From positions 1 through 48,934 of the forward strand of contig JBDQKM010000002.1 of NCBI GenBank assembly GCA_040263275.1: a stretch of DNA of 48,934 nt, read 5' to 3'. Under the pieces are notes generated by a model. It did no database searches and had not been told where the DNA came from. It was given only the letters and a program-made list of their open reading frames with translations. The position numbers and the translations under genes are program-made. The stretch comes from Acidimicrobiales bacterium. GTDB taxonomy: Bacteria > Actinomycetota > Acidimicrobiia > Acidimicrobiales > Aldehydirespiratoraceae. Below are positions 11,422 through 48,633 of this stretch, piece after piece. Position 1 is the stretch's first letter; each line of letters opens with the position of its first letter.

Positions 11422-11528
11422 GCGCGAGGGCTGTCGGCCCGATCGACGAAGACGATCCGAATACCGTCGACCGGCCAGAAACGGTCGCCCACCTCCAGGC
11501 TGAACACGTCGACAGGCGGCCGAATCCG

Positions 11529-20130: not shown

Positions 20131-20188
20131 GAGCGTTTCGGCACCGACCGGTTGGCGTCCATTCGCCCCGAAGGACCAAGCTCACGAC

Positions 20189-30651: not shown

Positions 30652-30897
30652 CTACTCCCTGGGGTCGTCGATCTCGACGCGGGCGAGGGCCGGCAGGTCG
30701 GTCTTCATCATGTCGAGCGCGACGGTCTCGAGGAAGGCGCGAGGCATGACGCACTCCGCGCACTCGGCGGTGTCGAGGACCAGCCGCAGGGCGACGCCAT
30801 CACCGCTGGTCGCGCTGACCATGATGTCGCCGCCGTCGGCCGCGACGAGTTCGCGCACCGCCGCGAGCGCGGATTCGGCTTCAGTCATGGTGATCAT
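30652..30897 (-). CDS. Small NifU/Nfu C-terminal-domain-like protein
   Basis: Real part of ORF 30652..31005, from ATG 30897, which overlaps the upstream stop (ATGA). AAVRELVAADGGDIMVSATSGDGVALRLVLDTAECAECVMPRAFLE resembles the Nfu fold with a CxxC pair. Confidence 0.55.
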   Translation of the reverse strand: MITMTEAESALAAVRELVAADGGDIMVSATSGDGVALRLVLDTAECAECVMPRAFLETVALDMMKTDLPALARVEIDDPRE

Positions 30898-31724
30898 CGG
30901 GCGTTCGCTCCTTCGAGGTCGTTCGTGAGTCCTTCGTCGTTCGCCGGCCGACTCCTCGACAGGAACGCACCGGCGTCGGCCAGGATGAACTGGCCGGTGA
31001 TGCAACGAGCCAGGTCGCTGGTGAGGAAGGTGGCGAGTCGGGCGAGCTCGTCGTGCTCGACGCCACGGCGCAGCGGCGTCGACTGCGCGATCTGCTCCAC
31101 CCGTTCGGGGGTGAAGGCCGCGGCGACGGTCTCCGTCATCGTCGTTCCCGGGGCCATGGCGTTGACACGGATGCCGCTCGGGCCGAGTTCGACGGCCATC
31201 GACGTGACGAGATGGTTCACCGCGGCCTTCGCCGCGGCGTAGATCGAGTTGTAGGGCGACGGCCGCGTCGTCTCACCCGACGTGACGAAGAGGATGACGC
31301 CGCCGCCGGCAGCCGCCATGACCTCGGCCTCGGCCCGGCCGCAGAGGGCCGCCAGGGTGAGGTTCTGATCGACGATGTCGCGCCAGTCCTCACCCCGGTA
31401 CCGCACGAAGGGTTTCGGGGACCGACCCGGCGGGATCATCCCGATGTTGTTGACGGCGATGTCGAGGCTGCCGAGACGTTGGACCGTGGTCGCCACCATG
31501 GCATCGACCGCGTCGTCGTCGCGGCAGTCGGCCACCACCGGCACCGCCCGACCGCCTTCGGCTTCGATCTCGGCCACGACCGCCGCGGCGTTCTCGGCCC
31601 GGAGATCGTTGACCGCCACCGCGGCGCCCGCCCGAGCGAGCCATCGTGCGACTTCCCGACCGATACCGGCGCCGGCCCCGGTCACCAGGGCCACGCGACC
31701 GTCATGGTCGATCGTGATGCTCAT
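30894..31724 (-). CDS. SDR family oxidoreductase
   Basis: ATG 31724 with GGGAGGA upstream. VALVTGAGAGIGREVA, NNIG, and YAAAKAAV (YxxxK). Confidence 0.85.
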   Translation of the reverse strand: MSITIDHDGRVALVTGAGAGIGREVARWLARAGAAVAVNDLRAENAAAVVAEIEAEGGRAVPVVADCRDDDAVDAMVATTVQRLGSLDIAVNNIGMIPPGRSPKPFVRYRGEDWRDIVDQNLTLAALCGRAEAEVMAAAGGGVILFVTSGETTRPSPYNSIYAAAKAAVNHLVTSMAVELGPSGIRVNAMAPGTTMTETVAAAFTPERVEQIAQSTPLRRGVEHDELARLATFLTSDLARCITGQFILADAGAFLSRSRPANDEGLTNDLEGANAR

Positions 31725-31725
31725 C

Positions 31726-32247
31726 TCACTGTCCTCCCGTGAGGAGACGCAGGGCCTCCTCGACCGCGCCGTCGGCCCACGCCTCGACGACCGAGGTGTC
31801 GGTGCCACCCAGGGGATGTTCGACCTGCACGATGCGCGCGTCGGGCTGCCCCAGTGAGGCCGCGACCTGGTCGGTCAGGGTCCTGAACTTGGTGGTGGTC
31901 ACCACCACCGTGGGGATCCCGGCGGCTTCGAGTTGTACGGAGTCGTGGACACTCCACGACGTGCAGCTGCCTCAATCGGCCGAGCCGGTCAGGACCAGCT
32001 CGACCTCCTCGCGTAGTCGTGACATCACGTCGTCGGGCGCCGCCAGGGCTGCGTTCTTGGTCTCGACCCGCGTGACGGTCGCCCCGGTCCGCTCGGCCAG
32101 TCGCTCCGCCATCCGGCCGAGCAGCACGCCGGCGTTCGGCTTGGTGTTGTCGAGGATGCCGATTCGTCGGCCGGCCAGGACGGAAGGGCTCGGGGCCAGA
32201 TGGACCGGCTCGGGGCCGATCTCACCCGCCGGGGTGTAGATCCTCAT
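31726..32247 (-). CDS. Candidate selenoprotein with a U-G-S-C motif (in-frame TGA at 31972..31974 read as Sec); 173 aa
   Basis: ORFs 31972..32247 and 31726..31908 are in the same frame, separated by one TGA and 21 sense codons. Read-through gives ..VELVLTGSAD-U-GSCTSWSVHDSVQLEAAGIPTVVVTTT... A SECIS-like hairpin lies 11 nt downstream. AGGAG SD precedes ATG 32247, and the gene is tightly coupled to its neighbours. Confidence 0.7.
31942..31960 (-). promoter_or_regulatory. SECIS-like hairpin downstream of the UGSC TGA
   Basis: The mRNA sense is GUCGUGG-AGUGU-CCACGAC, a perfect 7-bp stem starting 11 nt after the UGA. The apical-loop G-U falls at nt 23-24 counted from the U of UGA. Confidence 0.6.
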
Positions 32248-32271
32248 GCGTTTGCTCCTGTCATTCCGGTC

Positions 32272-33318
32272 TCAGTTCGCCTCGACGGCGACGGTCACGC
32301 TCTTCGTCATGCCCCAACTCGGGATCACGCTGCTGTGCTTGCCGGGGCCACCGACCACCAACACCTTGATGTGGTCGGGGTGGGCCGTCATGGGCATCAG
32401 TTCGTCGTCGGCCAGCGTCTGCTGCCACGGCTCCCACGCCCGCAGGTCGAAGGCGCGACGGAGCTCCCCGGCGGGCAACCGGGCGCGTTGATGCAGGTAG
32501 GACGCAACGTGACGACGCGTCCACCCGGCGGAGGCACACGCCGCAGCATGTTCTGGGCAGAGCGTCACGAAGTACTCGCCCTGGCTGATCGGGGCGTTGT
32601 TCTGTCCGGTCGAGCTCATGGCCGACGCGATCTTGTCGAGGATCGCCTCGGGCGTCGAGGATTCCATGTCGTGCGCATTGTGTGGCGCCTCGCCACAGTG
32701 GACGCTGACCGCCGACGGCGCTTCGACGCCGGCGTCGGCCGCATAGCTGCCCCACGGCGACTCGGCGAGGTTCTCGGCGACGCAATAGGTGTACTTCGCC
32801 GGTCCGCCCTGGGTGGCCACGTCGCCCGGACCGGGCACGGCGCCGGCAATGTGCATCAGGATGAGGCGGAGGGCCCGCCCTGTTGCCGCGTTGGCCCGGT
32901 TGCCGGGCCCGAACGCGCCGATCCCGCCGTTGAAGCCACCCTCCTCGGCCACCCGACCGTGAACGACCAGGAGCGGGGCGACGGGATGGGTCGTGGCGTT
33001 GACCCCACGGAGATTCACCTCGGGCCGGGCCAGTGCCCGCACCGCGGCCACCAGCACCGGCTGATGCGCTGGGGTGCACCCGGCGAGGACGGCGTTGACG
33101 GCGATCATCCGGCGTGTGGCGAGTCCGGATCGCGGCGGCAACACGGCGATCACCTCGTCGGGGTCGTGTTCCCCGGAGCCGAGCATCTCGGCCACTCGCT
33201 CCTCGGTCGGGGGGATCATCGGCAGACCGTCGCCCCACCCGAACGACGCGTAGAGCTCGAGGAGACGGACCGGGTCGTCGTGATCGAGTTCGAGGAAGGT
33301 CGCGCTGTCTGTTGCCAT
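32272..33318 (-). CDS. Conserved hypothetical protein (348 aa), first gene of the UGSC operon
   Basis: Real part of ORF 32272..34044, from ATG 33318 (MATDSATFLELDHDD..). It has normal coding bias, with blocks such as FGWGDGLPMIPPT, AVNAVLAGC, GVNATTHPVAPL and GPGNRANAATGRALRL. I could not assign a family. Confidence 0.6.
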   Translation of the reverse strand: MATDSATFLELDHDDPVRLLELYASFGWGDGLPMIPPTEERVAEMLGSGEHDPDEVIAVLPPRSGLATRRMIAVNAVLAGCTPAHQPVLVAAVRALARPEVNLRGVNATTHPVAPLLVVHGRVAEEGGFNGGIGAFGPGNRANAATGRALRLILMHIAGAVPGPGDVATQGGPAKYTYCVAENLAESPWGSYAADAGVEAPSAVSVHCGEAPHNAHDMESSTPEAILDKIASAMSSTGQNNAPISQGEYFVTLCPEHAAACASAGWTRRHVASYLHQRARLPAGELRRAFDLRAWEPWQQTLADDELMPMTAHPDHIKVLVVGGPGKHSSVIPSWGMTKSVTVAVEAN

Positions 33319-33332
33319 CAGACACCAGTCTG
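33319..33332. promoter_or_regulatory. Palindrome in the 51-nt divergent region between the UGSC operon and a TetR gene (operator candidate)
   Basis: CAGAC-ACCA-GTCTG directly abuts the ATG at 33318. Confidence 0.3.
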
Positions 33333-33369
33333 ATACCGTTCGACAGGAAACGCAAGCGAAGGAGCGTCG

Positions 33370-33936
33370 ATGGCCGCTCGTGCCGGGATCCGACGAGATG
33401 ACGTGATCGCCGAGGCGATACTGATGATCGACGAGGGCACCCGCCCCGCCGACCTGAGTCTCGGGGCCCTCGCCCGGCGACTGGGGATCCGGCCCCAGTC
33501 GCTCTACGCCCACGTCAACGGGACCGAAGGCCTGGGTCGTGCCGTGGCCGTTGCCGGCCTCGGCGCCCTCGCCGCAGCCGTCACCGCCGCCGGCATCGGC
33601 GTCAGCGGCACCGATGCGGTCGCGGCGATCGTGCGGGCCCACCTCGACTTCGCGTCGCGTCGGCCGGGCCTCTACGAGGCTGCGATCCGACCCCCGGGGG
33701 ACGACCCCGAACTCCTCGCAGCCGTCGAGGCCGTGTCGGCGCCGCTCGAGCAGGTCCTCACGGGGATGGGCATGGGTGGCGACGACCGGGTCCACTGGAC
33801 CCGGCTGTTTCTGTCGTCGGTCTACGGCTACGCCGCGTTGGGCAACGCCGGCCGATTCGCCCTGCCGGTGTCGACCGACGACACCGAAGCCGCGCTGATC
33901 GAAATGCTGACGCGCCGGCTGGTGGTCAGCGCTTGA
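33370..33936 (+). CDS. TetR family transcriptional regulator
   Basis: GAAGGAG SD upstream. HTH region RDDVIAEAILMIDEGTRPADLSLGALARRLGIRPQSLYAHVNGTEGL. Confidence 0.8.
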   Translation: MAARAGIRRDDVIAEAILMIDEGTRPADLSLGALARRLGIRPQSLYAHVNGTEGLGRAVAVAGLGALAAAVTAAGIGVSGTDAVAAIVRAHLDFASRRPGLYEAAIRPPGDDPELLAAVEAVSAPLEQVLTGMGMGGDDRVHWTRLFLSSVYGYAALGNAGRFALPVSTDDTEAALIEMLTRRLVVSA

Positions 33937-34528
33937 GCAGACGCCAGGCCGCGGGCAGCAGTGAGCCCGCCAGCAGGGCCTTGAGAAGATCGCCGACCAC
34001 GAACGGCGCAACGCCGTAGGCGATCGCACTTGCCTCGTCGACACCGGCGGTCACCGGGATGCCGAGGTCGTAGGCCAGCCAACCGGCGCCGAGCGTGTAG
34101 ATGATCACGCTGCCGGCGAGGAACGCGGTGATCGAGGTGGAGAGCTGACGGTCCTGGCCGCGCTCGGCCAGCCAGCCGACCGCGTAGGCCGCCACGATGA
34201 ACCCGACGAGATACCCCGCCGTGGATCCGGTGGCGACCTCCCAGCCGCCCTCGCCGTCGGAGTAGAAGGGCAGGCCGATCGCACCCATGGCGACATAGAG
34301 CAGCTGCGACGAGGCACCGAGTTGCGACCCGAGCGTGCCGCCGGCGAGGAGCACTGCGAACGTCTGGCCCGTGATGGGGACGGGCGTGAAGCCGAGCGTG
34401 AAGGACACCTGCGCGGCGCCGGCAGTGAGGAGGGCGAACCCAACCACGGCCACGATGTCGCGGACGACCGATCGAGGGATCGTGTCGATGAGGGTGGTCC
34501 GGGCGGGAATGGCCCCGATTGCAGTCAC
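33926..34528 (-). CDS. bioY: Biotin transporter BioY
   Basis: PITGQTFAVLLAGGTLG..LLYVAMGAIGLPFYSDG..GGWEV..GSTAGYLVGFIVAAYAVGWL is the BioY signature. GGAGG SD precedes the GTG at 34528. Confidence 0.85.
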   Translation of the reverse strand: MTAIGAIPARTTLIDTIPRSVVRDIVAVVGFALLTAGAAQVSFTLGFTPVPITGQTFAVLLAGGTLGSQLGASSQLLYVAMGAIGLPFYSDGEGGWEVATGSTAGYLVGFIVAAYAVGWLAERGQDRQLSTSITAFLAGSVIIYTLGAGWLAYDLGIPVTAGVDEASAIAYGVAPFVVGDLLKALLAGSLLPAAWRLLKR

Positions 34529-34608
34529 TGGTCAGCCTCCGAATGGCGGGCGCGGGATCGAACGGCGCCACCCTAGCCAGGTCGGCCCGAGGTGACGAAG
34601 CCGACGGT

Positions 34609-36414
34609 TCAGTCGAGTTGCAGCCCGGCGAGCCCGCCGGCGCCCCGCCACTCGTCGAGAAGGGCGAAGAACTTCATGTTGCCCTTGCCGTAACTGCCGT
34701 TCTGCGCCGCTCGGGCCGTGGGCTGACCCTCGTTGTTGTAGTAGCCCGGCGTGCAGCTCTCCTGAAACGCCGCGGTGTCGCGGGCGCTCGCGATGATCTC
34801 GGCGACCCACGCGTCCTCGGCCTCCACCGTCGCCTCGACGCGTGTCGACCCCGATGCGTGCATCTCCGCGAGCACGTGGGCGATGTGGCTGCTGACCTCG
34901 TCGAGCATGTGGGGATAGTTCGCGGTGAACCCTCCCTGGGTCTGGCTGACGATGAAGCAGTTGGGAAACCCGTGGCTGAAGATCCCGTGGAGTGTGCGGA
35001 CCCCGTCCTCCCACTTGGCCGACAGCGTGACGCCGTCGACGCCGGTCAGGTCGCATCCCGACCGTCGGGTGTAGCTGGTCCCGACCTCGAAGCCGGTGGC
35101 GAAGATCAGGCAGTCGACCTCGTATTCGGTCCCCGCGACGACCACCCCGCGCTCGGTGATCTCGTCGACGCCCTTGCCGTCGGTGTCGACGAGATGCACG
35201 TTGGGACGGTTGAAGGTGTCGAGGTACTCGTCGTGGAAGCACGGCCGCTTGCAGAACTGGCGGTACCACGGCTTGAGCGCCTCGGCGGTGTCGACATCGC
35301 GTACGACCCGGTCGACCCGCTCGCGGATCTCGTTCATCTTGGCGAAGTCGGCGAGCTCCATGGTGCGGCCGAGGCTCGCGGCGGAGAAGTCGCTCTGGGT
35401 CTGCTTCGCGATCTCGATGAACTTCCCGATGATGCTCGTCCACCCGTCCATCACCAGGTCCCGGTCGGTGAAGCCGCCCGAGACGAGGGTGTTGAAGTTC
35501 TCCATCCGTTCGCGGTGCCAGCCGGGAGACAACGAGGCCACCCATTCCGGGTCGGTGGGGGCATTCTCCCGCACGTCGATCGACGACGGGGTCCGCTGGA
35601 ACACATGCAGCGACTCGGCGGCGGCGCCGACGTGTGGCACACACTGCACCGCAGTGGCGCCTGTGCCGATGATCCCGACCCGCTTGCCGGCGAGTCCGGT
35701 GAGGTTCCCGTCGGGGTCACCGCCCGTGTAGTCGTAGTCCCACCGGCTCGTGTGGAACGAGTGGCCGGCGTAGCGGTCGATTCCCTCGATGCCCGGGAGC
35801 TTCGGTCGGTGGAGCGGCCCGCTCGACATGATCACGAATCGGGCCCGGATGGCATCGCCGCGATTGGTGCGGACCGTCCAACGCCGGGCCGGCTCGTCCC
35901 ATTCGGCCGAGGTCACCTCGGTCTGGAACAGGGCGTTGTCGTAGAGGCCGTAGTGCTCGCCGATCGTGCGGCTGTGGGCGAGGATCTCCTTGGCCTTGGT
36001 GTACTTCTCCGCCGGCATGAAGCCGGTCTCCTCGAGCAGCGGCAGGTAGATGTAGGACTCGATGTCGCACATGGCGCCGGGGTAACGATTCCAGTACCAG
36101 GTACCGCCGAAGTCGCCGCCCTTCTCGATCACCCACACGTCGTCGATGCCGGCCTCGGCGAGTCGGGCTCCCGCCAGGAGGCCACCGAACCCGCCCCCAA
36201 CGACCACCACTTCGACCTCGTCGGCGAGCGGTGCCCGCTGGATCACCTCGTCGAGGTAGGGGTCCTCCACGTAGTAGGCGAAGTCTCCGGCGACCTCCAC
36301 GTACTGCTCGTTGCCGTCGTCGCGGAGCCGCTTGTCTCGCTCGATCCGGTATTTCTCGCGCAGGACGTCGGGATCGAAGCCGAGGTCGTCGGCCGGGAGG
36401 TCGGTCGTCGTCAT
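34609..36414 (-). CDS. Baeyer-Villiger monooxygenase (paralogue of 24661..26451)
   Basis: VGGGFGGL, GGDFGGTWYWNRYPGAMCD, the fingerprint YAGHSFHTSRWD, and IIGTGATAVQ. It is collinear with the 24661 product along its whole length. Confidence 0.9.
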   Translation of the reverse strand: MTTTDLPADDLGFDPDVLREKYRIERDKRLRDDGNEQYVEVAGDFAYYVEDPYLDEVIQRAPLADEVEVVVVGGGFGGLLAGARLAEAGIDDVWVIEKGGDFGGTWYWNRYPGAMCDIESYIYLPLLEETGFMPAEKYTKAKEILAHSRTIGEHYGLYDNALFQTEVTSAEWDEPARRWTVRTNRGDAIRARFVIMSSGPLHRPKLPGIEGIDRYAGHSFHTSRWDYDYTGGDPDGNLTGLAGKRVGIIGTGATAVQCVPHVGAAAESLHVFQRTPSSIDVRENAPTDPEWVASLSPGWHRERMENFNTLVSGGFTDRDLVMDGWTSIIGKFIEIAKQTQSDFSAASLGRTMELADFAKMNEIRERVDRVVRDVDTAEALKPWYRQFCKRPCFHDEYLDTFNRPNVHLVDTDGKGVDEITERGVVVAGTEYEVDCLIFATGFEVGTSYTRRSGCDLTGVDGVTLSAKWEDGVRTLHGIFSHGFPNCFIVSQTQGGFTANYPHMLDEVSSHIAHVLAEMHASGSTRVEATVEAEDAWVAEIIASARDTAAFQESCTPGYYNNEGQPTARAAQNGSYGKGNMKFFALLDEWRGAGGLAGLQLD

Positions 36415-36443
36415 GGCGGCGAGTCTCGCGCCGACGACGGCCC

Positions 36444-37640
36444 TCAGTCGAAGGGAAGGTCGAGGAGCTTGATCGCGTTGCCGCGGGCGATCTTGTAGAC
36501 CGCCTCGTCGTCGAGATGGCCGAACAGCTCGTGGGCGACCTCCTTCGAGCGAGGGAAGGTCCCGTCGCTGTGGGGGTAGTCCGTCTCGAACAGCACGTTG
36601 TCGACGCCGACCTCGTCGAGCAGCTTCATGCCAGCCGTGTCCTTGAAGAAGCAGCTGTAGATCTGGCGGCGGTAGTAGTACGACGGCGGCTCGGGGAGGC
36701 GTTCCTCACCCTGGGCCCAGCGGTGGGTCTTGTAGTTGTCGTCGGCCCGTTCGAGGTAATAGGGGATCCAGCCGATCTGGCTCTCGGCGTACATGAGCTT
36801 CAGGTCGGGGTGGCGAACGAGCACTCCGGAGAACAGGAAGTCGATCATCGAGGCCGCACTGTTGGCCGAGATCAAGGCCGCGGTCACGAGCGTCGGCGCG
36901 TCGTCCGACGGCTTGACGGTGCGGGTGCCCGACCCGATGTGCATGGTGATGACGGTGCCGGTCTCCTCGCAGGCCCTGAAGAACGGGTCCCAGTGGCCCG
37001 AGTGGATGGAGGGGAGACCGAGCCAGGCCGGAAGCTCCGAGAAGGCCACGGCCTTGACACCGCGGGCGGCGTTGCGGCGGATCTCCGCGGCCGCGAGCTC
37101 GGCATCCCAGAGCGGCACGAGGCAGAGGGGGAGGAGACGACCGCCGGAGTCACCGCACCATTCGTCGACCATCCAGTCGTTGTAGGCCTCCACACACAGC
37201 TTGGAGAGCTCCATGTCGTTGCGCTCGGCGAAGAGCTGACCACAGAACCGCGGGTAGTTCGGGAAGCACAGCGACGCCTCGACATGATTGGCGTCCATGT
37301 CGGCCAGGCGGGCCTTGGGGTCGTAGCAGCCGGGCCGGATGTCGTCGTAGGTGACACCCTGCATCGTCACCTCTTCGGGCGGCGTGCCGGCGCAGGCGAT
37401 CATCTCCTTGATCTGGTAGCGGTGGTCCTCGTAGTGCCACCAGGCCGCCATCTTGTCGCCGTTGCCCGGAGTCTCGACCCAGGCACCGTCGACCAACGCC
37501 ATGTCTCCCTGCGGAGCGATGACGATCCGGGGACCCACGTCCTTGTACTTCTCGGGCAGCCGGTCCTGCCACAGATGGGCGGGCTCGACGACATGGTCGT
37601 CGACGCTGATGATCTTCGGGAAGTCGGCCAGTTCCGTCAT
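36444..37640 (-). CDS. Amidohydrolase-2 family protein (ACMSD/LigW-like metal-dependent hydrolase or decarboxylase)
   Basis: ISVDDHVVEPAHLWQDRLP..., ITMHIGSG, and FETDYPHSDG (a metal-binding Asp/His pattern). Confidence 0.75.
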   Translation of the reverse strand: MTELADFPKIISVDDHVVEPAHLWQDRLPEKYKDVGPRIVIAPQGDMALVDGAWVETPGNGDKMAAWWHYEDHRYQIKEMIACAGTPPEEVTMQGVTYDDIRPGCYDPKARLADMDANHVEASLCFPNYPRFCGQLFAERNDMELSKLCVEAYNDWMVDEWCGDSGGRLLPLCLVPLWDAELAAAEIRRNAARGVKAVAFSELPAWLGLPSIHSGHWDPFFRACEETGTVITMHIGSGTRTVKPSDDAPTLVTAALISANSAASMIDFLFSGVLVRHPDLKLMYAESQIGWIPYYLERADDNYKTHRWAQGEERLPEPPSYYYRRQIYSCFFKDTAGMKLLDEVGVDNVLFETDYPHSDGTFPRSKEVAHELFGHLDDEAVYKIARGNAIKLLDLPFD

Positions 37641-37664
37641 GCCACGACCATATCTGACGGTGTG

Positions 37665-38180
37665 TCAGGTTTCGGTGCCGAGCGAGAAAAGGAGGTGCTG
37701 CGAGAGGTCGCCGACCTGGCGTACGAACATGATCCGGGTGTCGAACCACCACTCCCCGTCGACCTTGTGGAACGTGTCCTCGTAGCGACCGGTGATGATC
37801 GGCTGCAGTGGAAGCTGAGTGGTGGCCTGCAACACGCAGTAATAGCTGCGGCAGGTGGCCCGGTCTCCGTCGACCTCGATGATGGCGTTGCTCGTCACGT
37901 GATGGGTCTTCGGCGTGCCGTCGTCGTCGTAGCGCCGGGTGGTGTTCTCGTACATCTTGCGGACACCCTCCCGACCCTCGAACACCGCATCGGGCGTGGG
38001 GTCCGGGGCGCCCCAGATCCGGCCATGGGTGAACAGGTCGGCGATGCCCTCGAAATCGCCGGCGTCGATGCGCTCGGCATAGGTGTAGAGCAGGTTCTCG
38101 ATGAGGCGGGCGTCGTCCATCGGGCCGAGGATACGCGCCTGCCGTAGTCTGGCGCGCATGTACTCCTTGGTGATCCGCAA
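37665..38180 (-). CDS. NTF2-like (SnoaL / ring-hydroxylating-dioxygenase beta-subunit-like) protein
   Basis: DDARLIENLLYTYAERIDAGDFEGIADLF..YYCVLQ... The start is more probably the ATG at 38120 (MDDARLI), which removes the overlap with the divergent gene starting at 38158. Confidence 0.65.
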   Translation of the reverse strand: MRITKEYMRARLRQARILGPMDDARLIENLLYTYAERIDAGDFEGIADLFTHGRIWGAPDPTPDAVFEGREGVRKMYENTTRRYDDDGTPKTHHVTSNAIIEVDGDRATCRSYYCVLQATTQLPLQPIITGRYEDTFHKVDGEWWFDTRIMFVRQVGDLSQHLLFSLGTET

Positions 38181-39885
38181 CGGGACGATCTACGACGGCA
38201 CCGGCAGCGCACCGGTGGTGGGCGATGTCGCCGTCACCGGATCGACGATCGTCGCCGTCGGCGCGATCGACGAGACACTCGTCGGGCCGGAGACCGAGAT
38301 CGTCGATGCCACGGATCGGATCGTGACGCCCGGGTTCGTCGACGCCCACACCCACTACGACGGTCAGGTCACCTGGGATCCCTTCGTGCAGCCGTCCACA
38401 TTCCACGGAGTCACCACGGTCGTGACCGGCAACTGCGGCGTCGGTTTCGCGCCGTGCCAACCCGAGCAGCGCGACTGGCTCATCGGGCTGATGGAGGGAG
38501 TCGAGGACATTCCCGGCACCGCCCTCCACGAGGGCATCCAGTGGGACTGGGAGTCGTTCCCCGAGTACCTCGACGCCATCGAGCGCCGGGAACTCGCGAT
38601 CGATGTCGGCACGCAGGTGCCCCATGGCGCAGTGCGGGCCTACGTGATGGGGGAGCGCGGCGCGAACCACGAGCCCGCCTCGGCCGACGAGATCGCGGCG
38701 ATGAAGCACGTCGTCAAGGAAGCCATCGCCGCCGGAGCCCTGGGTTTCAGCACCTCCCGTACCGAGAAGCACAAGACGTCGTCCGGTGTGCTCACCCCCT
38801 CGATCACGGTCCACGAGGAGGAGCTGGTCGGAATCGCGGAAGCCCTCGGCGAGTTGGACGCCGGGGTCCTCCAGGGCATCTCCGACTTCTACGACTTCGA
38901 GGCCGAGTTCCGCATGTTCCGGGCCATGACCGAGGCGTCGGGCCGACCGTGCTCCATCACGGTCGAGCAGCAGGACGCCCGCCCGGAGTGGTGGACACAG
39001 CTACTCGACGCGGTCTCCGAGGCCCAGGCCGCCGGCCTTCCGATGCGGGGCCAGGTGCCGCCCCGAGCGACCGGTGTACTGCTCGGGCTCACCGCCACCC
39101 TCAACCCGTTCTCCTTCCATCCGTCGTACCGCCGGCTCCACCTGATGGAGCTCGACGACCGAGTCGCGGAGATGCGCAAGCCCGAGGTGCGCGCCGCGCT
39201 GCTCGCGGAGGAGTCGGCGATCTCCGAAGGCCTCGTCGGCGAGATCATCGGCAGCTGGCACAAGATGTACCGGCTGGGGGAACCGGCCAACTACGAGCCC
39301 GCTCCCGAGGAGTCGTTCGCCGGCCTCGCCGAGGCCCGCGGCTGCACCCCGCAGGAGGTCGCCTACGACGCCTTGCTCGAAAACGACGGCCGGGCCCTGA
39401 TCTATCACCCGCTGTTCAACTACGGCAGCGGCGACCTCTCCTTCGTGCAGGAGATGCTCGAGCACCCCCACACGACATTCGGACTCAGCGACGGCGGCGC
39501 CCACTGTGGGGTCATCTCCGACGCCAGCTTCCCCACCACCCTGATCCAGCACTGGGGGCGCGACCGCAGCCGCGGCCCGAAGCTCCCGCTCGCACAGCTG
39601 ATCTCGATGCAGACGAAGCAGACCGCCGAGCTGGTCGGGCTGCTCGACCGCGGCGTACTCGCGCCGGGGTACAAGGCCGACATCAACGTGATCGACTTCG
39701 AAGGGCAGACGCTCCACGAGCCGACGGTCGCCTACGACCTGCCCGCCGGCGGGCGGCGTCTCGTCCAACGGGCCTCCGGCTACGAGGTCACCATCGTGGC
39801 GGGCGAGATCGCGTTCCGCGACGGCGAGCCCACCGGTGCGCTCAACGGCCGCCTCGTCCGCGGCGCGCAACCGGCGCCCGCCTAG
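38158..39885 (+). CDS. N-acyl-D-amino-acid deacylase (D-aminoacylase) family amidohydrolase
   Basis: Real part of ORF 38101..39885, from ATG 38158. LVIRNGTIYDGTGSAPVVGDVAV..IVTPGFVDAHTHYDGQ, GLSDGGAHCG, and the C-terminal DINVIDF. Confidence 0.8.
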   Translation: MYSLVIRNGTIYDGTGSAPVVGDVAVTGSTIVAVGAIDETLVGPETEIVDATDRIVTPGFVDAHTHYDGQVTWDPFVQPSTFHGVTTVVTGNCGVGFAPCQPEQRDWLIGLMEGVEDIPGTALHEGIQWDWESFPEYLDAIERRELAIDVGTQVPHGAVRAYVMGERGANHEPASADEIAAMKHVVKEAIAAGALGFSTSRTEKHKTSSGVLTPSITVHEEELVGIAEALGELDAGVLQGISDFYDFEAEFRMFRAMTEASGRPCSITVEQQDARPEWWTQLLDAVSEAQAAGLPMRGQVPPRATGVLLGLTATLNPFSFHPSYRRLHLMELDDRVAEMRKPEVRAALLAEESAISEGLVGEIIGSWHKMYRLGEPANYEPAPEESFAGLAEARGCTPQEVAYDALLENDGRALIYHPLFNYGSGDLSFVQEMLEHPHTTFGLSDGGAHCGVISDASFPTTLIQHWGRDRSRGPKLPLAQLISMQTKQTAELVGLLDRGVLAPGYKADINVIDFEGQTLHEPTVAYDLPAGGRRLVQRASGYEVTIVAGEIAFRDGEPTGALNGRLVRGAQPAPA

Positions 39886-40337
39886 ACCGTCATCAGGGCA
39901 GCCGCGCATGCGGCGCCCAGCTCCCAGGCCGCAGCCGTCGCGGCCTCGTCGACCGCGCCGATCGACTCGAACACGGGTTGGACCAGCCGCCACTCGAGGC
40001 CGGTGGTGATCTTGTCGAGGGCGAGCGCGGCCCCCGTGGTGTCGGACTCGCCGTGGATCCAGGCGCCGTAGGGGCGGCCCCTGGTGACACCGAGACTCGG
40101 GTTGTAGACGACGTCGAAGAAGTGCTTGAGCGCGCCGCTGATGTAGCCGAGGTTGGCGGGCGTGCCGAGGAGGTAGCCGTCGGCGGCCGCCACATCGGCG
40201 GGTGTCGCCTCCAAGGCCTCGACGACCACGGCCTCGACGCCGTCGATGCCGTCGGCGCCCGTTCCCTCGACCACGGCGTCGAGCAGCGAACGCAGCCCGG
40301 CGCTGGGGGAGTGGTGGACGACCAGAAGACGTTGCAC
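39882..40337 (-). CDS. Flavodoxin-like NAD(P)H-dependent FMN reductase family protein
   Basis: Real part of ORF 39882..40559, from GTG 40337. LLVVHHSPSAG..ADGYLLGTPANLGYISGALKHFFD. Confidence 0.65.
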   Translation of the reverse strand: MQRLLVVHHSPSAGLRSLLDAVVEGTGADGIDGVEAVVVEALEATPADVAAADGYLLGTPANLGYISGALKHFFDVVYNPSLGVTRGRPYGAWIHGESDTTGAALALDKITTGLEWRLVQPVFESIGAVDEAATAAAWELGAACAAALMTV

Positions 40338-40362
40338 CTTCCCAGCCTGACAGAATCGGGGC

Positions 40363-40803
40363 GTGCGCCTCGTTTTCGTTCTCGTCGTCGTGGGCGCACT
40401 CGCGTCGTGCGGCGACGACGCCTCGGCGCCCACGCCGACTTCCACCACCACGGCGGAGGCGGCACCGCCGAGGGCCGATGCCGGCGACGGCCTGTTTCCC
40501 GACGTCGTCGATGCCGCGGCGACGTCGAGCGGCGATGGGACGTGGGACTTCTCGGCCACGATCAGCTCTCCCTACGACTCACCCGATCGCTACGCCGACG
40601 CGTGGCGGATCGAGGGGCCGGACGGCTCGGTCCTCGGCGTCCGCGAGCTCCTCCACGACCACGCATCGGAGCAACCGTTCACGCGGTCGTTGACCGGTGT
40701 CGCCGTCGATGCGTCGATCGAGGTCGTGACCATCGAGGGGCGTGATCAGGTGAACGGGTGGGGAGGGCAGACCTTCGAGCTTCGGCTCACCGAGGACGGA
40801 TGA
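40363..40803 (+). CDS. Hypothetical lipoprotein
   Basis: (M/V)RLVFVLVVVGALASCGDD contains a lipobox (LASC), followed by an Ala/Pro/Thr linker and a ~100-aa domain. Confidence 0.6.
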   Translation: MRLVFVLVVVGALASCGDDASAPTPTSTTTAEAAPPRADAGDGLFPDVVDAAATSSGDGTWDFSATISSPYDSPDRYADAWRIEGPDGSVLGVRELLHDHASEQPFTRSLTGVAVDASIEVVTIEGRDQVNGWGGQTFELRLTEDG

Positions 40804-40809
40804 CGAAGG

Positions 40810-41982
40810 TCAACCCCGGTGGCGTCGGTGGTGGCAGGAAGCACATCGGAGCTCGAGCTCGCTGGTGAGGGTGTGGCCGGTCTGTTCGTGGGCCGGGTTG
40901 TGGTCGTATTCGAGGAGTTCGTGACTTCCGCAGTCGCGACACGCCCGATCGCGTTCCTTGACGAACCGCTTCTGACGGATGCTGGGGTGGCGGCGGCGAT
41001 TGGAGACGTCGACGGGGTTCGCCTCGGCGTCGTGGATCATCGCCCGGAGGAACGCGGTGGGGGCGATGCGCTCGACCACGGAGTCGGTGATCGGGCTTCC
41101 GTCGTCGAGGGTTGCGCCATCGCCACGCACGTGGAGCACCACCTCGGTCGCGACCTCGCCCGTACCGTGAGCGAGCACCTCCTCGATGGCATCGGCGTAC
41201 TGCTGGTTGGTCGTCGGCCAGGTCCCATCCGGCTCTCGGCGGGCAGCGGAGCGCATCACGAGCCGGGTGAGTGTGGCGATCAGGATCCCGGCCAGCAACG
41301 GCGGCAGGCGCAACGTGAAGACCACCATGCCGTCGGCCTCGGTGCGCCATTTCACGCCGCGAAGGGCGTGCTGATGCGCCTCCAGATCGCCAGGGTCGGC
41401 CTGGCCCGTGAACCACACGGCCAGCGCCCGTCCCAGCTCGGACGCCGGCACGTCGACCGCGATCGCCAGCAGGTCGGCCTCGTTCTCGACCGTCGCGAAA
41501 CGGGTCAGGGTCCGCACCTTCGAGTACGAGACCACGCCGCCCTCGAAGGTCCCGGCGATCGCCGGCAGATCACGAAGCTTGTGACCGATGCGGATCCACT
41601 CGCGGGCCGTGCACGTCTCGACGTCGGCGGTTGCCGCCAGCCAATGCGCTGCGGTGGGCGACTCCAGCACCCATTCGGCCGAGTCTGCGAACTCGGCCGC
41701 CAGCGTTACCAGCCGGAACTGCGCATCGGCCCACCGCCGGGTCACGTCGACGAGCGCCGACGCCAGCGGACGCGTGCCCGCACCGTCCGAAACCGCACCA
41801 CTCCCTGTAACACTCTTCCCTGCAACACTCTGGACACCCATCGCCGACCTCCATGCAAATGACTCACGTGGGGGACCGGCCGGAGGGTCTTGCGGGATCA
41901 CCTGAGCGGAGGACCTGGTCGAGCTTCGCTCGACCGCAGCGTACCCAGGGGGTGTGACACCCAAGAGCCGTGACCGGAACAC
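40810..41982 (-). CDS. DUF222 (13E12-repeat type) protein with a C-terminal HNH endonuclease motif
   Basis: C-terminus RDRACRDCGSHELLEYDHNPAHEQTGHTLTSELELRCASCHHRRH (HNH with Cys4). The upstream region is DUF222-like (AQFRLVTLAAEFADSAEW). The start may instead be the ATG at 41841. Confidence 0.75.
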   Translation of the reverse strand: MFRSRLLGVTPPGYAAVERSSTRSSAQVIPQDPPAGPPRESFAWRSAMGVQSVAGKSVTGSGAVSDGAGTRPLASALVDVTRRWADAQFRLVTLAAEFADSAEWVLESPTAAHWLAATADVETCTAREWIRIGHKLRDLPAIAGTFEGGVVSYSKVRTLTRFATVENEADLLAIAVDVPASELGRALAVWFTGQADPGDLEAHQHALRGVKWRTEADGMVVFTLRLPPLLAGILIATLTRLVMRSAARREPDGTWPTTNQQYADAIEEVLAHGTGEVATEVVLHVRGDGATLDDGSPITDSVVERIAPTAFLRAMIHDAEANPVDVSNRRRHPSIRQKRFVKERDRACRDCGSHELLEYDHNPAHEQTGHTLTSELELRCASCHHRRHRG

Positions 41983-42062
41983 CGAGCGCCACCACCCCGG
42001 ACACGCGTCCGCGGGATCGAATCCGGAGCCTGCGCCGACCTCTGGTGGCTACTCTCGGGGCC

Positions 42063-42650
42063 ATGACCGACCTGCCCTCCACTGACGACATCCCCGAGGT
42101 TTCGTGGACCCGCATGGAGGAGGGCACCGCTGCCGACTACGCGGTGCTGACGACCGCGGCCGTGGCGCACACCGGCGGCGCACTCGTCGACAACCTCCTC
42201 ACGATGCTCGACCTGCTGAAGGGACCGAACCTCGGATACCAGATCAACCGCTACGAACACTCCCTGCAGTCCGCCACCCGCGCCTACCGGGCCGACGAGT
42301 CGGACGACCTCGTCGTCGGTGCGCTCCTCCACGATGTCGGCGATGTGTTCGCGCCCGAGAACCACAGCGATGCGGCCGGCGCGCTTCTCGCTCCCTACGT
42401 CGACGAGCGGACCGAGTGGATCGTTCGCCACCACGGCATCTTCCAGGGCTACTACTACTTCCATCACCTCGGTGGCGACCGCAACGCCCGCGAGCACTAC
42501 CGGGACTCGCCGCACTACGACGCGTGCGTTGCCTTCTGCGCCGAGTACGACCAGAACTGCTTCGACCCGAACTACGACACCTTGCCCATCGGCGAGTTCG
42601 AGCCCCTGCTCCGCGAGGTCATGAGCCGTCCATCACGCTTCGACACCTGA
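42063..42650 (+). CDS. HD-domain metal-dependent protein (possibly a PhnZ/MIOX-like oxygenase-type HD protein)
   Basis: Real part of ORF 41970..42650, from ATG 42063. YEHSLQSA..GALLHDVGD..ENH..IVRHHGIFQGYYYFHH supplies several His/Asp ligand candidates. The subfamily assignment is a guess. Confidence 0.6.
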   Translation: MTDLPSTDDIPEVSWTRMEEGTAADYAVLTTAAVAHTGGALVDNLLTMLDLLKGPNLGYQINRYEHSLQSATRAYRADESDDLVVGALLHDVGDVFAPENHSDAAGALLAPYVDERTEWIVRHHGIFQGYYYFHHLGGDRNAREHYRDSPHYDACVAFCAEYDQNCFDPNYDTLPIGEFEPLLREVMSRPSRFDT

Positions 42651-42662
42651 CAGACTCGGCGG

Positions 42663-42980
42663 ATGCTCACGCTCTACCACAACCAGAATTGAAGCAAGGC
42701 TCGCGGGGCGGTCGCCCTGCTCGACGAACGCGGGGTCGACTACACGATCCACGACTACATCGCCGATCCACTCGATGCCGCGACGCTGACCGAGCTCGTG
42801 GCCATGGTCGGCGGTGACCCGGCGGCGATGGTGAGGGCATCCCTCGACGACACCAGCGCCGCGGCGGTGGTGGCCCACCTGGTCGAGAACCCGGCCGACA
42901 TGCAACGACCCATCGCCGTGCTCGACGGCCGCGCCGTCTTCGGCCGCCCGTCCGAGCTGGTGCTCGACCTCCTCGACTGA
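42663..42980 (+). CDS. ArsC-family (Grx-type arsenate reductase fold) protein with an in-frame TGA at the catalytic Cys position; candidate selenoprotein, 105 aa
   Basis: ATG 42663, 12 nt after the HD-gene stop. MLTLYHNQN-U-SKARGAVALLDERGVDYTIHDYIADPL... aligns with the ArsC N-terminus IYHNPAC(12)GTSRN, and the TGA at 42690..42692 sits at Cys12. The C-terminus NPADMQRPIAVLDGRAVFGRPSELVLDLL matches ArsC ..INRPIV....RLCRPSEVVLDIL. A SECIS-like hairpin follows the TGA. Confidence 0.7.
42703..42720 (+). promoter_or_regulatory. SECIS-like hairpin downstream of the ArsC-family TGA
   Basis: GCGGGGC-GGUC-GCCCUGC forms a 7-bp stem (one G.U pair) starting 10 nt after the UGA. From memory, GGUC is the same apical tetraloop sequence as the E. 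coli fdhF SECIS. The loop G-U falls at nt 22-23 from the U of UGA. Confidence 0.55.
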
Positions 42981-42985
42981 GCGCC

Positions 42986-44179: not shown

Positions 44180-44289
44180 CCTCAGGCCATCCGCGGCCCG
44201 ACGCGGGAAGATCCCTGTCCACCTGGGTCACGATGCGGTACGGTCTGCCAGCAATTGTCCGTACATTTATCCAAGGCTCTGAAGGACAC

Positions 44290-45807: not shown

Positions 45808-48633
45808 ATGACCGACCTGCAGCAGTACCCGCCCCACGAGGACTGGCACGACGTCACCTCGCTCAACGCCAAGGCCTGGCCCGACAAGGTCGAGGAACAC
45901 CACTCGCTGGTGCCGACGACCTGCTTCAACTGTGAGGCGGCGTGTGGGCTGCTGGCCCACGTCAACCACGAGACCGGCGAGATCGACAAGATCGAGGGCA
46001 ACCCGCTCCATCCCGCGTCGCGGGGCCGCAACTGCGCCAAGGGCCCGGCCACGCTCAACCAGGTCACGGACACCGAACGAATCCTCCATCCGATGCGTCG
46101 GGTCGGGGAGCGTGGCTCGGGGCAGTGGGAGCGGGTCAGCTGGGAGGAAGCCCTCACCGACATCGGTGCTCGAATCGGGACGGCGATGGACGAGGGCCGC
46201 CGCGACGGCGTGATGTACCACGTCGGTCGACCGGGGGAGGACGGCTACGCCGACCGGGTCCTCAAGTCGTGGGGCGTCGACGGCCACAACAGCCACACCA
46301 ACATCTGCTCCTCCAATGCCCGCATCGGCTATCAGAGCTGGATGGGCCACGACCGCCCGTCGTCCGACTTCGCCAACGCCGAGGTGATCTTCCTGATCTC
46401 CTCGCACCTGGAGGCGGGCCACTACTTCAACCCCCACGCCCAGCGCATCATCGAGGCCCAGGGCAAGGGCGCGACCGTGATCTGTGTGGACCCGCGACTG
46501 TCCAACACCGGTTCGAAGGCCGACCACTGGCTGCCGGCCTGGCCCGGAACGGAGCCCTTCCTCCTGCTCACGATCGCCCGGCTGCTCATCGAGCGCGGGA
46601 CCTGGCAGAAGGACTTCGTGCGTCGGTGGGTCAACTGGGAGACCTACCTCTCCGAGACCCGCCCCGACCTGCCGCTCGAGTTCGACTCACTCGAGACCGC
46701 GTTGCTCGACGCCTACGCGGAGTACACCCCCGAAGCGGCCGAAGAGATCTGCGGCGTCTCCGGCGACCAGCTCCGAGAGATCGCCGAGATCATCGGGGCC
46801 CACCCGACCAAGTTCGCGTCGCACAACTGGCGAGCGGCCGGCGCCGGCAACCTCGGCGGTTGGCAGACCGCCCGCTGCCTGTTCTTCCTCAACGTGTTGA
46901 CCGGCTCCGTCGCGACCGTCGGCGGCACCAGTGGCAACGGCTGGAACAAGTTCAAGCCCGCCCAGCCGAAGGGCGCACCGGCGCTGCACGAGTGGAACGA
47001 GCTCTCCTGGCCGAAGGAGTTCCCGCTCTCGTACCACGAGATGTCGATCCTCCTGCCGCACTTCCTGAACGAGGGTCGCGGCACGCTCGACGTGTACTTC
47101 AGCCGGGTCTACAACCCGATCTGGACAAACCCCGACGGCTTCTCGTGGATGGAGGCGCTGACCGACGAGTCGAAGGTGAAGTGCCACGTGGCCCTCACCC
47201 CGACCTGGTCGGAGACCGCCTGGTTCGCCGACTATGTGCTCCCGATGGGAGTCGGCACGGAGCGTCACGACGTCGCGTCGTTCGAGACCCACAACGGCCG
47301 CTGGATCGGATTCCGCCAGCCGGTCATGCGCCGCTACGCCGAGATCCGCGGCGAGGAACTCGGACCCGACTCGCGCACGCACGAATTCAACCGCGGCGAG
47401 GTCTGGGAGGAGAACGAGTTCTGGATCGACCTCTCGTGGAAGATCGACCCCGATGGGTCTCGCGGCATCCGCCAGTGGTTCGAGTCCGACGAGCGGCCGG
47501 GGACGCCGATCACGGTCGACGAGTACTACGGCACGATGTTCTCGCAGTCCGTCCCCGGGCTCGCCGAGGCGGCGGAGGAAGCGGGCAAGACCCCGCTCGA
47601 GTACATGCGCGACGTCGGCTCGTTCGCCGTGCCGGGCGACATGGTCACGCCCTACGAGCGCATCGTGGGCGCCGACGCGGTCGCCGACTGCGAGAAGGGC
47701 ACCGATGGTGTCTTCCGCAAGCCGGGCACGATCGGTGCCTGGGACGGGACCAAGGATGGTCTGGCCGACATCGCCCTCGCCGACCTCGGCGAGGGCTCGC
47801 CCGCAGTCGAGGTCGACGGCGAGATCAAGGAGGGTTTCCCGACGCCCTCGAAGAAGCTCGAGCTCTTCTCCACCACGCTCAAGGACTGGGGATGGCCGGA
47901 GTATGCAGCGCCCACGTGGATCAAGAGCCACGTCCACCACCAGGACCTCGACATCGCGGGCAGTGAGCGCATCCTTCTGCCCACGTTCCGGATCCCGACA
48001 CTGATCCACACCCGTTCGGCCAACTCGAAGTGGCTCAACGAGATCAGCCATCGGCACCCGTTGTGGATCCACCCGTCCGACGCGGAGGCGCTCGACATCG
48101 AGGAGAACGGGCTCGTGCGCATCACCACCCGGATCGGCCACTTCGTCATCCAGGCCTGGCGAACCGAGGGCGTTCGCCCCGGCGTCGTCGCGGCATCGCA
48201 CCACATGGGGCGCTGGCGCATCGAGGAGGACAAGGCACGATCCTGGGGCGCCGGGAAGGCCACCATCGACAAGACCGCCGACGGGAAATGGAAGCTGACC
48301 CGCAACGACGGCATCCGCAAGTTCGACTCGGACGACCCCGACACCAACCGCATCTGGTGGAACGACACCGGTGTGCACCAGAACCTCACCTTCTCGGTGC
48401 AGCCCGACCCCATCTCCGGCATGCAGTGCTGGCACCAGAAGGTGACCGTCGGCCCAGCCGAGGCCGGCGACCAGTACGGCGATGTCGTCGTCGACACGGC
48501 CAAGTCCCGCGAGGCCTACCTCGACTGGATGGCCAACACCCGGCCCGCACCGGGGCCTGGGGGTCTGCGGCGCCCTCTCTGGTACGCCCGTCCGCTCAAG
48601 CCCGCCGCGCCGATGTACCACCTCGACGACTGA
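45808..48633 (+). CDS. Molybdopterin (bis-MGD) oxidoreductase catalytic subunit, Psr/Ttr/Soe-like, without a TAT signal
   Basis: FS0 motif CFNCEAACGL..(27)..CAKG. Candidate Mo ligand region GHNSHTNICSSNARIG. VCVDPR is the MGD-binding region. An in-frame TAG 12 nt upstream of the ATG excludes an N-terminal extension, and there is no RR motif. Confidence 0.85.
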   Translation: MTDLQQYPPHEDWHDVTSLNAKAWPDKVEEHHSLVPTTCFNCEAACGLLAHVNHETGEIDKIEGNPLHPASRGRNCAKGPATLNQVTDTERILHPMRRVGERGSGQWERVSWEEALTDIGARIGTAMDEGRRDGVMYHVGRPGEDGYADRVLKSWGVDGHNSHTNICSSNARIGYQSWMGHDRPSSDFANAEVIFLISSHLEAGHYFNPHAQRIIEAQGKGATVICVDPRLSNTGSKADHWLPAWPGTEPFLLLTIARLLIERGTWQKDFVRRWVNWETYLSETRPDLPLEFDSLETALLDAYAEYTPEAAEEICGVSGDQLREIAEIIGAHPTKFASHNWRAAGAGNLGGWQTARCLFFLNVLTGSVATVGGTSGNGWNKFKPAQPKGAPALHEWNELSWPKEFPLSYHEMSILLPHFLNEGRGTLDVYFSRVYNPIWTNPDGFSWMEALTDESKVKCHVALTPTWSETAWFADYVLPMGVGTERHDVASFETHNGRWIGFRQPVMRRYAEIRGEELGPDSRTHEFNRGEVWEENEFWIDLSWKIDPDGSRGIRQWFESDERPGTPITVDEYYGTMFSQSVPGLAEAAEEAGKTPLEYMRDVGSFAVPGDMVTPYERIVGADAVADCEKGTDGVFRKPGTIGAWDGTKDGLADIALADLGEGSPAVEVDGEIKEGFPTPSKKLELFSTTLKDWGWPEYAAPTWIKSHVHHQDLDIAGSERILLPTFRIPTLIHTRSANSKWLNEISHRHPLWIHPSDAEALDIEENGLVRITTRIGHFVIQAWRTEGVRPGVVAASHHMGRWRIEEDKARSWGAGKATIDKTADGKWKLTRNDGIRKFDSDDPDTNRIWWNDTGVHQNLTFSVQPDPISGMQCWHQKVTVGPAEAGDQYGDVVVDTAKSREAYLDWMANTRPAPGPGGLRRPLWYARPLKPAAPMYHLDD

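Follow-up and report, generated by a model that had tools for sequence, protein, structure and literature searches.

We analysed a 48,934-nucleotide stretch of DNA, referred to here as the window, which makes up contig C2 of a metagenome-assembled genome (MAG) from the class Acidimicrobiia. Two of its genes, one of the UGSC family and one of the ArsC (arsenate-reductase-like) family, are each interrupted by an in-frame TGA codon that is followed by a hairpin resembling a selenocysteine insertion sequence (SECIS). The MAG comprises 3,515,695 bp on 324 contigs (labeled C plus a number below), and is 92.16% complete. Comparisons were made with 41 related genomes, including nine from the same genus (congeners). 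A preliminary description of the window had placed both TGAs at redox cysteine (Cys) positions and had proposed that they encode selenocysteine (Sec, U). The positions are borne out by the UGSC motif in one protein and the catalytic Cys of ArsC in the other, and the hairpin loop G-U offsets given there, 23-24 and 22-23 with the U of UGA numbered 1, are exact.

The UGSC-family gene occupies positions 31729..32247 of the reverse strand and, when its TGA is read through, encodes 173 amino acids ahead of a TGA stop codon at 31726-31728. The internal TGA (31972-31974, in frame on the same strand) specifies U92 within ADUGSCTSW, which contains the motif that defines the family. The protein scores 142.3 bits against the NCBIfam model NF041046 "UGSC family (seleno)protein" (cut-off 125), and 165.1 bits against Pfam PF24696 (cut-off 25) over residues 3-170, so that the TGA lies inside the domain. 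It carries the U/C-G-S-C motif of the family, whose column is invariant across 28 aligned homologs. The hairpin, GTCGTGG-AGTGT-CCACGAC (31942..31960, reverse strand), begins 11 nt past the TGA and consists of a 5′ stem (31960-31954), a loop with G23 and U24 (31953-31949) and a 3′ stem (31948-31942) that form seven base pairs.

A structure model built from the 28-sequence alignment has a mean predicted local distance difference test (pLDDT) score of 91.3 and adopts a five-strand beta-alpha fold, with U92 between a strand (residues 84-90) and a helix (residues 93-108). The best Foldseek matches in the PDB are generic flavodoxin-like proteins with template modeling (TM) scores of 0.45-0.52, and no specific structural relative was found there by this search (TM at most 0.52). 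The product would be a small redox protein with a U-x-x-C pair at a helix N-terminus in a predicted flavodoxin-like alpha/beta fold.

The ArsC-family gene lies on the forward strand at 42663..42977, starting with ATG at 42663 and ending before a TGA stop codon at 42978-42980, and encodes 105 amino acids. Its internal TGA (42690-42692) specifies U10 in MLTLYHNQNUSKARG, the position of the ArsC catalytic Cys. Pfam PF03960 matches residues 5-101 with 31.7 bits (gathering cut-off 24), a range that includes the site. Among solved structures, phmmer matches the arsenate reductases 3rdw (4e-12) and 1i9d (4e-7). In the 3rdw alignment U10 stands opposite the Cys of YHNPRCSKSR, and the Arg-containing motifs VRA, RPI and GRP of the ArsC-like protein also align. 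The matched ranges for 1i9d (query 2-104, chain 4-116) imply that U10 corresponds to chain residue 12, provided that the alignment is gapless at its start, and this residue we take to be the catalytic Cys (Cys12 in R773 ArsC numbering). Judged from the sequence, the product is probably a small reductase of the ArsC family with Sec in place of the nucleophilic Cys. The hairpin, GCGGGGC-GGTC-GCCCTGC (42703..42720, forward strand), begins 10 nt past the TGA, and its 5′ stem (42703-42709), loop with G22 and U23 (42710-42713) and 3′ stem (42714-42720) give seven base pairs, one of which is G-U.

Both frames would also stay open if an altered genetic code or general suppression caused TGA to be read as Trp, Gly or Cys. 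Nothing specific favors this explanation beyond the fact that the frames stay open on read-through, and we consider it extremely unlikely. TGA terminates 783 of the 1011 long, strongly coding open reading frames (ORFs) of the genome (77%), and the genetic code is therefore the standard one. The UGSC and ArsC genes both stop at TGA themselves. Moreover, the sites of read-through are confined to redox Cys positions accompanied by hairpins, and the genome holds the dedicated genes selA, selB and selD (see below).

Conservation of the TGA codons and their hairpins

Matches to the UGSC protein occur in 30 of the 41 related genomes, and all 56 of these matches contain exactly one in-frame TGA. In the 30 loci that were retrieved, the TGA is at the same codon throughout. 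The hairpin is preserved as well: 97% of stem cells are paired among 29 distinct sequences, and one base pair flips between G-C and C-G (16:13) between two paralog groups. Within the hairpin, six degenerate codons are fixed in 15 orthologs that share 53-95% protein identity, and the wobble positions immediately before and after it vary in the same sequences.

Searching with the gene upstream of the UGSC gene (see below) reached 54 further loci, among which 37 UGSC genes have TGA at the site and four have a Cys codon (TGC or TGT). In all four Cys-form (CGSC) orthologs (L113, L115, L119 and L129) the loop has AGC rather than AGT, and U24 is gone; one of them also has a disrupted stem. These four genes are a natural control that links the presence of U24 in the loop with that of a Sec codon, although they may form one clade, in which case a single event could lie behind them.

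Orthologs of the ArsC gene are found in six of the nine congeners (69-94% identity), and TGA occupies the same codon in six of six. More distant homologs, 14 in number, are divided equally at that codon between TGC (7) and TGA (7). In two of seven ArsC orthologs GGG...GCC is changed to GGA...GCT, two synonymous changes that convert a G-C pair to A-U. A covariation alignment was made from seven window-type and six second-type ArsC sequences (11 distinct), leaving out two of the seven TGA-bearing distant homologs because a GGTC loop was lacking where one would be expected. Four of eight pairs are altered on both sides in this alignment, and 88.6% of hairpin cells are paired versus 75.0% in shuffles, a value that none of 500 shuffles reaches; slid controls give 28-72%. 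Part of this covariation falls between the two paralog groups.

These data bear on the possibility that the TGAs are true stops, arising as pseudogene lesions or assembly errors, with the flanking ORFs being separate or broken genes. Standard gene calling would indeed split both genes, and lesions or errors do occur in this assembly, where two other TGAs break domains at non-Cys positions (on C87 and C43, described below). However, the TGA is retained in orthologs (69-95% identity) from up to 15 genomes and alternates only with Cys codons in homologs, and synonymous sites are frozen exactly across the UGSC hairpin. Furthermore, the ORF upstream of the ArsC TGA is only nine amino acids long, and the next start in frame, a GTG at 42798, would yield a 60-amino-acid product without the N-terminal portion of the ArsC domain. 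Termination at these codons is therefore very improbable.

Hairpin geometry and chance

To express how often such hairpins follow TGA we used a fixed definition: an uninterrupted stem of at least 6 bp, a loop no longer than 6 nt that includes GU, with the G at +22 to +25, and a spacer of 9-14 nt. Over both strands of the whole genome, 858 of 72,243 TGA triplets (1.19%) are followed by a hairpin of this kind. Both window TGAs are among them, and the joint probability is approximately 1.4e-4 if the two are independent. The argument that the agreement of the two hairpins exceeds chance and points to one SelB-type system is upheld by this frequency, and by the selB, selA and selD genes found elsewhere in the genome.

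The SECIS of the Escherichia coli fdhF gene is a hairpin located about 11 nt after the UGA, with an apical loop GGUC that presents G23 and U24. The window genes resemble this arrangement in their spacers of 10-11 nt and, for ArsC, in the GGUC loop; the host also has a winged-helix selB, and its Sec-containing formate dehydrogenase (FDH) gene has a GGUCU loop with G23 and U24. Two features differ from the fdhF element. The UGSC loop is AGUGU, and in other selenoprotein genes of the genome the loop G is found at +26 to +36. GGUC(N) loops are present in at least nine of the further selenoprotein genes of the genome. Overall, 8 of 19 Sec sites fit the hairpin definition, where the 19 include one uncertain 107-amino-acid candidate; in most of the remaining sites a GGUC(N) loop lies at these greater distances from the TGA.

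Selenocysteine machinery and the tRNA-Sec gene

As the preliminary description had stated, the window itself holds no Sec machinery. It contains no tRNA genes, and selA, selB and selD are on other contigs. The selB gene on C191 scores 274.5 bits against TIGR00475 (cut-off 242.25), and its product has the Pfam domains GTP_EFTU, domain 2, the SelB beta-barrel and SelB-wing_3 (PF09107, 52.8 bits). The selA gene, at the extreme start of C79, matches TIGR00474 with 367 bits and PF03841 with 306 bits. The selD gene on C151 scores 368 bits against the NCBIfam selD model TIGR00476, and is itself interrupted by a TGA, in SHGAGUGCK, at the known Sec/Cys site.

On this basis we conclude, with a probability of roughly 0.9, that both window TGAs encode Sec and are decoded in the standard bacterial, SelB-dependent manner. 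In such a system SelA would make Sec-tRNA(Sec) from Ser-tRNA(Sec) with selenophosphate supplied by SelD. The winged helix at the C-terminus of SelB would recognize the loop G-U, at approximately +23, of the mRNA hairpin located 10-11 nt past the UGA, and SelB would bring the Sec-tRNA(Sec) into the ribosomal A site, where the UGA is read. By analogy with E. coli fdhF we infer both Sec insertion and binding of the hairpins by SelB, and the substrates of the UGSC and ArsC-like proteins are likewise inferred.

A number of results weigh against this conclusion. In this DNA of 68.8% G+C, the folding energies of the UGSC and ArsC hairpins are not unusual: they have z-scores of -0.40 and +0.91 relative to dinucleotide shuffles, and 61 and 171 of 200 shuffles, respectively, fold at least as well. 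The case rests on geometry, conservation and covariation, and free energy is not discriminating. A search of the window with Rfam (E values up to 1) gave seven sub-threshold matches, none at either hairpin and none to a SECIS family. Among the 20 public runs that contain the window (see below), none of RNA type is on record. The ArsC-like protein scores 68.9 bits against the TIGR00014 equivalog, short of the cut-off of 106.05; arsenate as its substrate is therefore not established, and the protein is assigned to the ArsC family only. Arsenate reduction may be regarded as a lead suggested by the sequence rather than as a finding.

The most direct points of this kind concern selC, the gene for tRNA-Sec. 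With Rfam RF01852 the best score in the assembly is 42.7 bits, below the gathering threshold of 47 (150 of 651 candidates were scored). ARAGORN reports no UCA anticodon among 45 calls in the assembly (42 assigned tRNAs and three unassigned tRNA-like sequences), and a scan of the assembly for the motif TTCA...GTTCGA gave eight places, none of which is a tRNA-Sec. Rfam also places no tRNA-Sec beside selA, selB or selD, where a single chance match was all that appeared. The three odd ARAGORN calls, reported as "tRNA-???", were inspected as tRNA-Sec candidates and rejected. The genome-wide search for selABCD that the preliminary description had recommended thus returned selA, selB and selD, but selC was not found in the fragmented assembly. 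For the refuting condition named there, genome-wide absence of selC and selB, the outcome is accordingly mixed.

Failure of three methods to detect selC in the assembly would be expected if the Sec trait were decaying in this strain, with selC already gone and the genes that contain TGA reduced to early-terminating relics. We regard this as very improbable. The selA, selB and selD genes are intact, and at least 18 genes with an internal TGA keep an open frame on either side of it, with full coding signal. The assembly, moreover, is 92% complete and divided among 324 contigs. In addition, a 92-nt tRNA-Sec scoring 64 bits is present in eight of the nine congeners, the remaining congener being 66% complete, and a tRNA-Sec was found in 13 of the 21 genomes searched, this genome counted among the 21. 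When the 4.6 kb surrounding selC in the closest relative (G003) are compared with this assembly by blastn, nothing matches, which indicates that the whole region is missing rather than the tRNA alone. The flanks of selC in another relative (G008), a sigma factor and a HAD protein, have just paralog-level matches here (52% and 37%). An apparent selC-flank match on C138 was rejected as a sigma-factor paralog.

Sequencing runs that contain the window provide further information. Two of the four runs compared, X1 and X2, contain a 93-nt contig that is identical to the tRNA-Sec of the genus, and these two also match the window best. In both runs the contig has loose ends on either side, which is the behavior of a tRNA shared by co-occurring strains in an assembly graph. 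Over the selC locus of the relative, the four runs give little or no cover for most of the 4.6 kb beyond the tRNA and its 3′ flank. To the points listed above it must be added that these metagenomic tRNA-Sec contigs are not assignable to this strain as opposed to a co-occurring congener. Because selC is present in eight of nine congeners, its whole neighborhood is absent here and identical contigs exist in X1 and X2, selC is likely missing through an assembly gap rather than loss, and this strain presumably carries it.

The wider selenoproteome

Scanning the genome for in-frame TGAs with an ORF on both sides gave 18,037 cases, of which 240 passed a coding filter based on G+C content at third codon positions (GC3). 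From these, 20 were chosen by eye for family searches, and other selenoproteins may have been missed. Of these 20, 15 have the TGA at a known redox Cys, either within or bordering a match to a Pfam or NCBIfam model. A relaxed second scan added 101 TGAs, and only that of an FDH looked real by eye. The search for further interrupted ORFs that had been suggested from the window alone therefore yielded at least 16 more selenoprotein genes. With the two window genes included, the genome has at least 18, comprising 16 of thiol-redox type, one SelD and one FdhA.

Among these proteins, GPx, DsbA, an Rv2466c-like DsbA, Bcp/PrxQ and a WAxxUGC-like AhpC/TSA protein each have TGA at a redox Cys, and two redoxin/TlpA-like proteins have a UxxC motif. 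Two AhpD-related proteins with CFYU score above the cut-off of the (seleno)protein model NF041238, and two further CMD proteins have CxxU. Each window gene has a relative elsewhere in the genome: a second ArsC (UNSS) is on C72, and a second UGSC gene, a paralogous copy, is on C92. A PrdB-like protein (L022) encoded on the forward strand of C6 at 31731-32882, with the motif TPVUPLCT, is matched by NCBIfam selenoprotein-B models, and its score of 138.7 bits against TIGR04483 does not reach the cut-off of 300.

The Sec-containing formate dehydrogenase FdhA is encoded on the reverse strand of C19 at 22397-24355, where a TGA at the canonical site, IDSCNRTUHAPSV, is followed by the hairpin GTCGTC-GGTCT-GGCGAC with G23 and U24. 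The catalytic ORF is without the usual N-terminal Fe-S domains. Approximately 2 kb downstream (19763-20653, reverse strand) is an ORF with 2Fe-2S and 4Fe-4S motifs whose last part is the beginning of a molybdopterin domain. The gene may be split or permuted, or the contig may be mis-assembled here.

Several other interrupted ORFs were set apart from this list. L035 was rejected as a selenoprotein since it matches no family, and L038 was discarded because its TGA is the stop of an SDR gene, with a P450 fragment behind it. On C87, a TGA with its first base at 11437 (reverse strand, L036) falls at residue 648 of a GlmS-like protein, inside the first SIS domain (Pfam 524-654) and at a non-Cys, non-redox position; it could be due to a pseudogene, an assembly error or read-through that does not involve Sec. 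On C43, a TGA with its first base at 663 (forward strand, L037) corresponds to residue 199 within a fatty-acid hydroxylase domain (Pfam 113-242), in HANIRURLRPL, which is not a redox-Cys site.

One further ORF, on the reverse strand of C40 at 11018-11338 (L026), encodes 107 amino acids with a TGA in EPFGUGKKF and a hairpin GGTATC-AGTT-GATACC. Thirteen other genomes of the same family have full-length homologs, in which a TGA stands at residue 35; it is the only TGA in all but one of them, which has two. Stop-free partial copies covering residues ~37-107 are arranged nearby in tandem, for example at C40 10156-10299. A weak lead to its family is NF041239, "CC/Se motif family (seleno)protein" (E value 0.006; 16.7 bits with a cut-off of 40).

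Neighboring genes and molybdopterin enzymes

Directly upstream of the UGSC gene is a conserved gene for a protein of 348 amino acids (32272..33318, reverse strand), the likely UGSC partner. No Pfam or NCBIfam family matched this protein. The gene adjoins UGSC in 27 of 30 loci, including that of the paralogous copy on C92 (query residues 55-348), and in 41 of the 54 further loci a UGSC or CGSC gene lies at most 700 nt downstream of the 348-amino-acid homolog. These patterns suggest that the two proteins are probably a functional pair. In a protein atlas the protein falls only into unannotated clusters, one of which (score 0.88) has 16% UGSC carriers, a mere lead.

Homologs of this protein in genomes with species names (the 54 loci) derive from MAGs throughout. 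Their labels are Acidimicrobiia, Acidimicrobiales, Acidimicrobiaceae, Candidatus Aldehydirespiratoraceae, Microthrix, Actinomycetes or Actinomycetota, and the only label from outside Actinomycetota is that of L145, an uncultured Spirochaetales.

On the other side of the UGSC gene, an SDR gene (30894-31724, reverse strand) has a start that overlaps the UGSC stop (cagTGAgATG), and after it comes a small ORF that contains CxxC (DTAECAEC; 30652-31005, reverse strand). The SDR gene is syntenic in 12 of 30 UGSC loci, with that of the window included, and all 12 are of the orthologous group.

The window also encodes a molybdopterin oxidoreductase on the forward strand (45808..48633; domains Molybdop_Fe4S4, Molybdopterin and Molydop_binding), which has no internal stop. 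It had been described as using Cys rather than Sec, and alignment with the Sec position of FDH (23% identity) agrees, placing a Cys there; it is not a selenoprotein. A fused 4Fe-4S dicluster/NrfD membrane protein precedes it (44200-45795, forward strand). We take this combination of 4Fe-4S/NrfD and molybdopterin proteins to denote a Psr/Phs-type enzyme and not a formate dehydrogenase, and the window enzyme looks like a complex of this type (polysulfide/thiosulfate-reductase-like). A search of the genome with Pfam Molybdopterin found six enzymes, one of which, on C19, has Sec.

At least half of the sampled words from window positions 41000-44000 occur in each of 20 public runs from 15 studies, one labeled rhizosphere and the others estuary, marine, seawater or marsh. 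The run that matches best may be the source sample. The host habitat is estuarine or marine, and the lineage is uncultured.

Relation to known selenoproteins

Both families have a history in metagenomic data. The 2005 study of the Sargasso Sea (PMC1088965) introduced arsenate reductase, AhpD-like and DsbA-like selenoproteins, and found a dominance of thiol-dependent enzymes and a surprising scarcity of FDH. In the 2008 study of the Global Ocean Sampling (GOS) data (PMC2398784), Table 2 gives 255 Sec versus 21 Cys forms for UGSC-containing proteins. That list also holds ArsC 1 (pfam03960), FdhA and other families found here; PrdB-like genes are abundant in the GOS data too, and the UGSC family was commoner in non-marine and estuarine samples. 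A 2026 review catalogues both families, with NF041046 and TIGR00014.

The window UGSC protein is like that of the GOS family in its motif and in the predominance of Sec (here 56 of 56, and 37 versus 4). It differs in two respects, neither of which is defining. The GOS paper suggested a thioredoxin-like fold, whereas our model is flavodoxin-like with TM scores of 0.45-0.52, and the paper reports UGSC fused to a domain termed "Unknown_1", whereas the 348-amino-acid upstream gene is a separate ORF here. The 348-amino-acid protein may correspond to "Unknown_1". For ArsC, the window protein matches the Sec forms from the Sargasso Sea and GOS (PMC1088965, PMC2398784) in having Sec at the N-terminal nucleophile position. 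The redox motif listed for the family is UxxS; the window protein has USKA, and its paralog on C72 has UNSS, which fits UxxS.

The selenoproteome had been anticipated to consist of small thiol-redox proteins rather than formate dehydrogenase. The first part of this expectation holds for 16 of the at least 18 genes, but the second does not, given the Sec FDH on C19. The added proposal that dominance by thiol-redox proteins is atypical must be abandoned, as the same pattern is evident in what is reported for the Sargasso Sea and GOS (PMC1088965, PMC2398784). The same set recurs here, namely Prx, Prx-like/Trx-like, AhpD-like, DsbA, ArsC, GPx, PrdB, UGSC and SelD, with few FdhA.

In a full-text search for literature pairing "Acidimicrobi" with selenoprotein, the sole relevant item was a preprint on Actinomarina (10.64898/2026.04.03.716425). 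It describes Sec use in marine Acidimicrobiia, with selD itself encoding a selenoprotein. Actinomarina and the present host thus belong to the same class and share a SelD selenoprotein. They differ in number, with approximately five selenoprotein genes per 1.1-Mb genome in Actinomarina versus at least 18 in 3.5 Mb here, and in lineage, which here is of Acidimicrobiales type, with MAGs labeled Acidimicrobiia, Aldehydirespiratoraceae or Microthrix.

Implications

Both window genes are new members of catalogued selenoprotein families, and knowledge of Sec decoding is unchanged by them. A bolder set of propositions is doubtful when taken jointly: that the selenoproteome of the host genus, with at least 18 genes in 3.5 Mb, could be among the largest in Actinomycetota; that UGSC, as a flavodoxin-like UxxC subunit distantly similar to GrdB/PrdB, and the 348-amino-acid protein might form an undescribed two-component selenoenzyme; and that the 107-amino-acid GUG protein encoded on C40 might be divergent or represent a new family.

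The absence of tRNA-Sec from a fragmented MAG is weak evidence against the use of Sec. Standard gene callers would split or truncate both window genes and at least 16 more, and redox enzymes are therefore under-reported in this MAG and its relatives. The genome described here provides a genome-resolved example of a selenoproteome that is rich in thiol-redox proteins and includes one Sec-containing FDH. When this thiol-redox-rich pattern was originally recognized, the data were anonymous metagenome reads alone.

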